Below are positions 1,144 through 1,173 of a DNA stretch of 2,313 nucleotides, piece after piece (position 1 is the stretch's first letter; each line of letters begins with the position of its first letter). Made by a program: the position numbers and the translations under genes. The stretch is from Escherichia coli (GTDB lineage Bacteria > Pseudomonadota > Gammaproteobacteria > Enterobacterales > Enterobacteriaceae), in NCBI RefSeq assembly GCF_024223415.1, contig NZ_CP100508.1. One strand, 5' to 3'. A model generated the notes under the pieces. That model was not told where the DNA came from, ran no database searches, and saw nothing but the letters and a program-made list of their open reading frames with translations.

Positions 1144-1173
1144 AAATAAGGTCTTTTTAAAAAGACCTTATTT
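1144..1173. terminator. Candidate bidirectional intrinsic terminator between convergent rep and RHH genes (perfect 30-bp palindrome)
   Basis: AAATAAGGTCTTTTT (1144-1158) is the exact reverse complement of AAAAAGACCTTATTT (1159-1173). It starts 10 bp after the rep stop codon and overlaps the RHH gene stop codon (1168-1170). The hairpin is AU-rich with a weak U-tract, so termination efficiency is uncertain. Confidence 0.5.

Follow-up and report, generated by a model that had tools for sequence, protein, structure and literature searches.

The DNA analyzed here, a window of 2313 bp, is a complete circular cryptic plasmid of Escherichia coli with two genes in convergent orientation. Its closest named match is E. 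coli pPK8275-2.3kb (NZ_CP080170.1, 2313 bp, circular, replicon type Col(MG828)), which is 99.7% identical over its full length, and approximately 18 further plasmids of 2310-2313 bp with 96-99% identity are found in E. coli, E. fergusonii, Klebsiella and Actinobacillus. The two genes and the features that lie upstream of them are as follows:

492-557, upstream of repL: three tandem 22-bp direct repeats, TGTAACGTGTAGAAGATACACC, copies 93% and 70% identical
573-601, + strand: promoter-like site GTGACA-17-TATATT upstream of repL, by consensus match only
602-627, between the promoter-like site and the repL start: inverted repeat TTTGTCACCTTTATAAAGTGACAAAG
637-1134, + strand: repL-like replication gene, 165 aa, matching Pfam RepL and a winged-helix domain
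1168-1593, - strand: nikA/mobA-like ribbon-helix-helix (RHH) relaxosome accessory gene, 141 aa, start ATG at 1593
1665-1701, approximately 75-100 bp upstream of nikA: inverted repeat TGTATTCG (1668-1675) / CGAATACA (1684-1691), then CATCCTATCC

The product of the first gene carries the RefSeq name 'replication/maintenance protein RepL'. The second had been taken for an RHH gene in the original prediction, and its product indeed matches the Pfam NikA-like family PF21983 (E=2e-15) and the NCBIfam MobA model NF041264 (96 bits against a cutoff of 80 bits); the gene is already called nikA in one record. Its reading frame can be extended upstream (1594-1692, - strand) to a GTG at 1692, which would give 174 aa, and the records differ on the start codon: a longer nikA is annotated in OY754451.1, against the ATG at 1593 (141 aa) in RefSeq.

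The upstream features suggest how the two genes might be organized. The direct repeats at 492-557 look like the iterons of a replication origin, and the inverted repeat at 602-627, with further GTGACA/TGTCAC copies nearby at 394-401 and 572-578, may be an autoregulatory operator. On the nikA side, the layout at 1665-1701 resembles an oriT of the I-complex (R64 type), in which a NikA-binding repeat is combined with a nick region (PMC9282650); MOB-suite types these plasmids as non-mobilizable. The site at 573-601 is presumed, from its match to the promoter consensus, to be the source of + strand transcription into the gene junction. On the opposite strand no convincing sigma-70 promoter was found for nikA, the best sites in a relaxed scan having 8/12 matches and lying approximately 200 bp upstream, and convergent transcription into the gene junction is thus an assumption.

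A perfect palindrome at the convergent gene junction

Between the two genes, positions 1144-1173 read AAATAAGGTCTTTTTAAAAAGACCTTATTT, with halves AAATAAGGTCTTTTT and AAAAAGACCTTATTT, and the 30 bp are identical to their own reverse complement. The symmetry is exact over 15+15 bp and ends at 1144 and 1173, with the flanks CACCT and GAATA not being symmetric. The stop codon of repL (TAA, 1132-1134) lies 9 nt before the palindrome; that of nikA (also TAA, + strand positions 1168-1170) lies within its right arm, such that the non-coding gap between the genes amounts to 33 bp (1135-1167). The exactness of the palindrome, its overlap with the RHH stop codon and the 33-bp spacing had all been pointed out in the original prediction, and they hold in every detail. 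Furthermore, the palindrome is not a product of chance: it is the only perfect palindrome with a half-length of at least 6 in the whole plasmid, and none of 2000 dinucleotide-preserving shuffles reached its half-length of 15, the longest being 11 when the whole plasmid was shuffled and 14 when the AT-rich core was.

It is informative to examine where this sequence occurs. A survey of 5426 complete E. coli genomes found it in 26, every time in this plasmid family and never in the chromosome, and an exact search of viral contigs with its 22-nt core gave 0 matches. No change in the 30 bp is seen across 25 E. coli genomes and six metagenome contigs of the same plasmid type, with variation at the nearby position 1139; this invariance is statistically uninformative, given that the overall divergence is just 2.5-4% (close relatives are 96-99.7% identical).

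This distribution leaves no room for the palindrome being a copy of a dispersed REP-like repeat, of which chromosomal copies would be expected, and the related idea that it forms part of a dif/cer-like Xer multimer-resolution site is effectively refuted as well. The latter has one point in its favor, namely that GGTGCGCATTA (1133-1143, - strand), directly adjoining the palindrome, matches at 10/11 positions the XerC arm of dif, GGTGCGCATAA. However, a match to the XerD arm is absent at the right spacing and the XerC-like motif varies in close relatives, being GGTGCACATTA in L002 and GATGTGCATTA in L003 (pEC21Z147-3K-3, described below), and so the match is probably due to chance. Taken together, we give this pair of explanations a negligible probability.

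Fold and terminator-like features of the palindrome

When transcribed from either strand, the palindrome is predicted to fold into a stem of 13-14 bp closed by a 4-nt loop, with a free energy of -13.1 to -15.1 kcal/mol and z = -5.0 to -5.8; the folding calculation that had been proposed as a check of the hairpin thus bears it out on both strands. The anatomy of this fold can be described by three segments:

1144-1149, left arm: A-tail AAATAA, the U-tract template for the - strand (nikA) transcript
1150-1167, both strands: hairpin core, GGTCTTTTT/AAAAAGACC, the actual stem of the presumed two-way terminator, which holds all G-C pairs
1168-1173, right arm: T-tail TTATTT, then GAAT, the U-tract for the + strand (repL) transcript

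The stem contains three G-C pairs, all of them in the core GGTC/GACC (G-C, G-C, U-A, C-G). The outer six pairs of the palindrome set AAATAA against TTATTT; because each strand's T-tail is complementary to the A-tail of the opposite strand, the tails are able to pair as a lower stem. Pairing of this kind is described for two-way terminators in the TransTermHP paper, where it is masked on purpose (PMC1852404). Hence, the 30-bp perfect palindrome is best read as a hairpin of 18-22 nt with complementary tails, in which the central TTAA is the loop. For hairpin formation this center needs no palindromic symmetry, and one relative does carry a substitution there. The same segments also have a coding aspect, in that on the - strand the T-tail corresponds to the last nikA codon, AAA, and the stop TAA, and positions 1144-1149 in the repL frame read AAA-TAA, a second in-frame stop 9 nt past the first that mirrors the nikA end in the right arm.

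How much this hairpin resembles an intrinsic terminator was assessed with a discriminant of the d'Aubenton-Carafa type, which adds a weighted T-tail score to the hairpin energy per nucleotide and has its threshold at 0. The best decomposition of the palindrome scored -28.5 on the + strand and -28.6 on the - strand, with the tails UUAUUUGAAU (+ strand) and UUAUUUAGGU (- strand), and is therefore below threshold; the controls rrnB T1, trpA t, T7 Te and the his attenuator scored +22 to +70. The low values are explained by the AT-rich stem and by the U-tract, which is interrupted (UUAUUU). Likewise, the palindrome was not listed in a consensus terminator scan of the plasmid, likely because the stem was extended through the A/T tails and the T-poor tail GAATAAAT was left to be scored. 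Both results set it apart from strong intrinsic terminators of the canonical kind. It is nonetheless worth considering these scores in the context of the plasmid itself: when all of it was scanned with the discriminant on both strands no candidate came up to the threshold, and the palindrome ranked first among the candidates of the - strand and second among those of the + strand, and it is the only one of these top candidates that sits at gene ends.

Measured against what is typical of intrinsic terminators, the palindrome thus gives a mixed picture. It has the stable stem-loop with a short loop, and it is placed just downstream of a stop codon on both sides, 9 nt past that of repL and overlapping that of nikA; it lacks the G+C-rich stem, the uninterrupted U-tract and a score above threshold. 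The features associated with bidirectional terminators are more fully represented, as the two genes are tail to tail with a spacer of only 33 bp and a single hairpin serves both strands with an A-rich tract on its 5′ side and a T-rich tract on its 3′ side.

It is also worth asking whether the hairpin acts as DNA rather than as RNA. As single-stranded DNA the palindrome folds with -10.2 kcal/mol and z = -6, which invites the idea of a priming hairpin, either as a rolling-circle single-strand origin or for initiation of the complementary strand after conjugative transfer. The Pfam RepL family takes its name from small Firmicute plasmids, and some small Firmicute RepL plasmids are regarded as rolling-circle; moreover, with nikA and the oriT-like repeat the plasmid looks mobilizable, so its entry into a recipient would be single-stranded. 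However, known single-strand origins are approximately 150-200 nt long, imperfect and orientation-specific, with conserved motifs such as the TAGCGT loop of CS-6. The palindrome, at 30 nt, fully symmetric and lacking a motif of the TAGCGT type, does not look like one when judged by these features. In addition, the three 22-bp iterons that precede repL suggest replication of the iteron type, the palindrome matches no Rfam family and no other structured element (Rfam scans of the plasmid and of a rotated copy across the circular junction returned a single chance match to a snoRNA, E = 0.71), and the hairpins of related plasmids, described below, have no sequence motif in common. We consider a role in priming to be very improbable. 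Extrusion of the AT-rich palindrome as a cruciform in duplex DNA is conceivable, but by twin-domain reasoning the positive supercoiling between convergent transcription units would disfavor it.

The equivalent junction in related plasmids

In a distant-mode search with positions 1050-1300, the matches to other small E. coli plasmids covered only the nikA side, starting at 1162-1172. Comparing six plasmids that share nikA (L003-L008) reveals that NikA is 86-100% identical and that the rep genes are unrelated or just 24% identical, and in the alignment the DNA homology does not extend past the nikA stop codon. What lies beyond that point in each of them is listed here:

pEC21Z147-3K-3 (L003): NikA 96%; a different repL plus a remnant of a repL 3′ end of the type found in the 2313-bp plasmid; the same palindrome with one loop change
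pSTEC2018_166-e (L004): NikA 94%; no detectable similarity in rep; hairpin AAGCCCGTCAA..TTGGCGGGTTT
pSCU-106-10 (L005): NikA 89%; no detectable similarity in rep; hairpin AGCCGATATATC..GATATATCGGCT
pSCU-171-4 (L006): NikA 88%; no detectable similarity in rep; hairpin AGCCGATATA..TATATCGGCT, of a type common with L005
pPK8241-2kb (L007): NikA 86%; rep 24% identical to RepL; hairpin ATAGGTCTT..AAGACCTAT with a 12-nt loop
pEC21Z147-2K-1 (L008): NikA 94% (partial); no detectable similarity in rep; hairpin AAACCCGCCAA..TTGGCGGGTTT, of a type common with L004

Four non-homologous types of hairpin are therefore found beside a nikA that is 86-100% identical. In five of these relatives (L003, L004, L006, L007 and L008) the best fold of the 44-nt junction is at least as stable as that of 99-100 of 100 shuffles; L005 was folded without shuffles. 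The tail on the - strand is T-poor in L005/L006 and in L007. Near-canonical terminators of the A-tract/GC-stem/T-tract kind are found at the equivalent place in RepL plasmids that are more distant and have a convergent mobV (relaxase) gene. These are Klebsiella aerogenes pC51827_2k (L009), which has the closest RepL homologue (64% identity) and the junction AAACCCGCAGCAATGCGGGATTTTTTT, and Arsenophonus paPv18 (L013), in which the junction AAAAAACCAGCC..GCTGGTTTAAAAA scores above the discriminant threshold on the - strand. In the GC-rich junctions of L009, taken overall, and of L010, the folds were indistinguishable from shuffles.

From this sequence comparison, the junction hairpin is conserved as a structure while its sequence is freely replaced. 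Retention of a hairpin at the orthologous junction in spite of sequence replacement fits what is predicted of a terminator, and it is not the behavior of a sequence-specific protein site. This bears directly on the suggestion, made in the original prediction, that the palindrome could be a protein-binding site, that is, a dyad-symmetric DNA site for a dimer of NikA, RepL or a host factor. There is some appeal in this, since the plasmid encodes two DNA-binding proteins, the dyad symmetry is perfect even at the central TTAA where an RNA hairpin has no use for it, and the core AGGTCTT/AAGACCT recurs in pPK8241-2kb. However, in that plasmid the arms are 12 nt apart as opposed to 4 nt, which speaks against the fixed footprint of a dimer; the central position varies in pEC21Z147-3K-3; and plasmids whose NikA is 86-94% identical have entirely different hairpins at this place. 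Within the 2313-bp plasmid the motif is not recurrent, as the half-site TAAGGTCTTT occurs four times when up to 2 mismatches are allowed, the palindrome accounts for two of the four, and as many are found in 56 of 200 shuffles. The palindrome is also unlike the iterons (492-557), the operator-like repeats with GTGACA (602-627) and the inverted repeat that resembles an oriT (1668-1691), and it is located at the 3′ ends of genes, not at promoters. The binding-site suggestion thus finds no support in the comparison and strikes us as highly unlikely.

The plasmid pEC21Z147-3K-3 is instructive in several respects. The sole substitution found within the palindrome occurs in this plasmid and in a metagenome contig (L014), and it affects the loop, TTTTT|AAAAA becoming TTTTTT|AAAA. 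The plasmid also has an 8-bp duplication, GTTTATTT, which shifts the nikA stop codon out of the stem, lengthens the T-tract of the + strand and raises the discriminant of that strand from -28 to -3. This variant shows that the hairpin can do without overlapping the stop codon and that the center of the palindrome is not constrained. In the same plasmid (1458-1640), as in L014, a different repL comes first, and downstream of it lie a remnant, frameshifted, of the repL 3′ end of the 2313-bp plasmid type (aa 124-165), the palindrome and the 8-bp duplication. This layout is a visible trace of the replacement of a rep module within the plasmid family.

In light of such exchanges, one may wonder whether the palindrome is above all the mark of a module boundary, a scar or hotspot of recombination perfected by template-switch mutation (quasi-palindrome correction), with the hairpin being under little selection. 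The homology of the nikA module between plasmids does end at or within the right arm (1162-1172), pEC21Z147-3K-3 shows a rep replacement with a repL remnant and has its duplication beside the palindrome, and perfection that extends to the center of the loop exceeds what an RNA hairpin needs. However, the break falls exactly on the nikA stop codon, where any boundary between gene modules would be expected, and the joint in pEC21Z147-3K-3 lies inside repL rather than at the palindrome. Furthermore, five module combinations carry hairpins at this junction that are independent of one another and non-homologous, which argues that a hairpin is selected. An origin of this kind would also be compatible with a function as a terminator and not opposed to it. 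As the main explanation, we regard it as quite unlikely; the palindrome nonetheless marks the boundary across which the rep and nikA modules were shuffled.

Metagenomes add few new arrangements to those already described. A scan anchored on the conserved 3′ end of nikA yielded 11 contigs, of which one (L018) is without any known junction type and looks unrelated and the rest repeat types already seen; neither among these contigs nor among the close relatives were there compensatory double changes in the stem to score. One contig (L020, OMAY01003693.1, 5351 bp) contains two nikA junctions, at 2568-2590 and 4878-4900, one of the pPK8241 type and the other of the type found in the 2313-bp plasmid, and it represents either two small plasmids fused into a cointegrate or a chimeric assembly.

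Candidate mechanism and known bidirectional terminators

The symmetric and stable fold, the A/T tails, the position at the two stop codons, the rank among the terminator candidates of the plasmid and the hairpins of the relatives all point in the same direction, and we consider it probable that the palindrome acts as one RNA hairpin on both strands, a bidirectional terminator or pause site for transcription where repL and nikA meet tail to tail. We infer that both genes are transcribed into this hairpin and that RNA polymerase stops there. The proposal, contained in the original prediction, of termination in both directions that limits antisense read-through is accordingly the reading best supported by the sequence evidence, with a refinement: the two-way hairpin stands, but the strength of a canonical terminator does not, the element being weak and AT-rich with a discriminant of -28.5.

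Specifically, the transcript of either gene would fold into GGUCUUUUUAAAAAGACC, which can be extended to 13-14 bp, and would continue with UUAUUU, with the outer 6 bp of the palindrome supplying the A-tail and its complementary T-tail, both of which two-way termination requires. Termination by the hairpin alone would probably be inefficient, given the AT-rich stem and the interrupted U-tract, and the hairpin would more likely work in the manner of the pause/collision-type bidirectional terminators found between convergent E. coli genes. It may also stabilize both mRNAs as a 3′ structure. The outcome would be that read-through from repL does not run antisense to nikA and that read-through from nikA does not run antisense to repL. 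Both stop codons lie within one ribosome footprint of the stem, and ribosomes positioned at the ends of repL and nikA might interfere with folding of the hairpin.

A class of bidirectional terminators between convergent gene pairs of E. coli was reportedly described by Ju et al. 2019. Such elements are reported to be unlike strong intrinsic terminators, to perform poorly when they are transcribed from one side only and to be hairpin pause sites at which collisions of head-on and trailing polymerases complete termination, a mechanism that was studied on the ynaJ-uspE element (bioRxiv 10.1101/2022.10.23.513370). The palindrome is similar to these in its short tail-to-tail spacer, in the use of one hairpin for both strands and in being weak as a stand-alone intrinsic terminator, and the role proposed for it, which is to define both 3′ ends and to block antisense read-through, is the same. 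It differs from them in lying on a 2.3-kb plasmid and not on a chromosome, in being exact with a stop codon in its arm, and in that convergent transcription is assumed here. Compared with canonical or two-way intrinsic terminators (TransTermHP, PMC1852404), the likeness is in a stem-loop that leads into a T-rich tract on either strand and lies directly after the stop codons; the differences from a canonical one are the AT-rich stem with 3 G-C pairs, the short and interrupted U-tract and the discriminant of -28.5.

The comparison can be extended to the hairpins of the sister plasmids (pSTEC2018_166-e, pEC21Z147-2K-1, pSCU-171-4, pSCU-106-10, pPK8241-2kb, pC51827_2k and paPv18), which occupy the same place, where a rep module meets a convergent nikA or mobV, and in most cases have A-rich 5′ and T-rich 3′ flanks as the palindrome does. 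In contrast to the palindrome, they have their stop codons outside the stem, and most have longer loops or GC-richer stems; their sequences are unrelated to it, with the exception of the core shared with pPK8241-2kb.

A more specific version of the mechanism deserves mention. It is possible that the hairpin is too weak to act alone and is a programmed pause/collision site, with an efficiency set by simultaneous transcription from both sides and by ribosomes that stop within a footprint of the stem, with the effect of coupling the expression of repL (copy number) to that of nikA (mobilization). We view this as unlikely. If it were true that the element works only with convergent transcription, the 2.3-kb plasmid would be a compact, natural and minimal model for collision-driven bidirectional termination, and one could also use it as a test bed for how small plasmids insulate the control of replication from transfer functions.

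Returning to the reading as a bidirectional terminator or pause site, literature searches found no paper on this hairpin or on this exact plasmid family, and the palindrome is a previously unannotated instance of a well-known type of element on a known family of plasmids. The reading attaches a function to a feature so far without annotation in a cryptic plasmid family that is present in approximately 0.5% of complete E. coli genomes; its practical value is modest, and current understanding is not challenged by it.

A separate part of the plasmid is also of interest. Positions 2090-2313 and 1-360, contiguous on the circle, form a segment of approximately 0.6 kb with a G+C content near 60%, in contrast to approximately 30% in the rep-nikA core. 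An Rfam scan of this segment gave no match. It contains a perfect 13-bp inverted repeat (2161-2173 / 2212-2224), and it is 85-93% identical to several hundred cryptic plasmids of approximately 1.5 kb from E. coli, Klebsiella and Salmonella, an example being the 1549-bp plasmid of O104:H4 2011C-3493.
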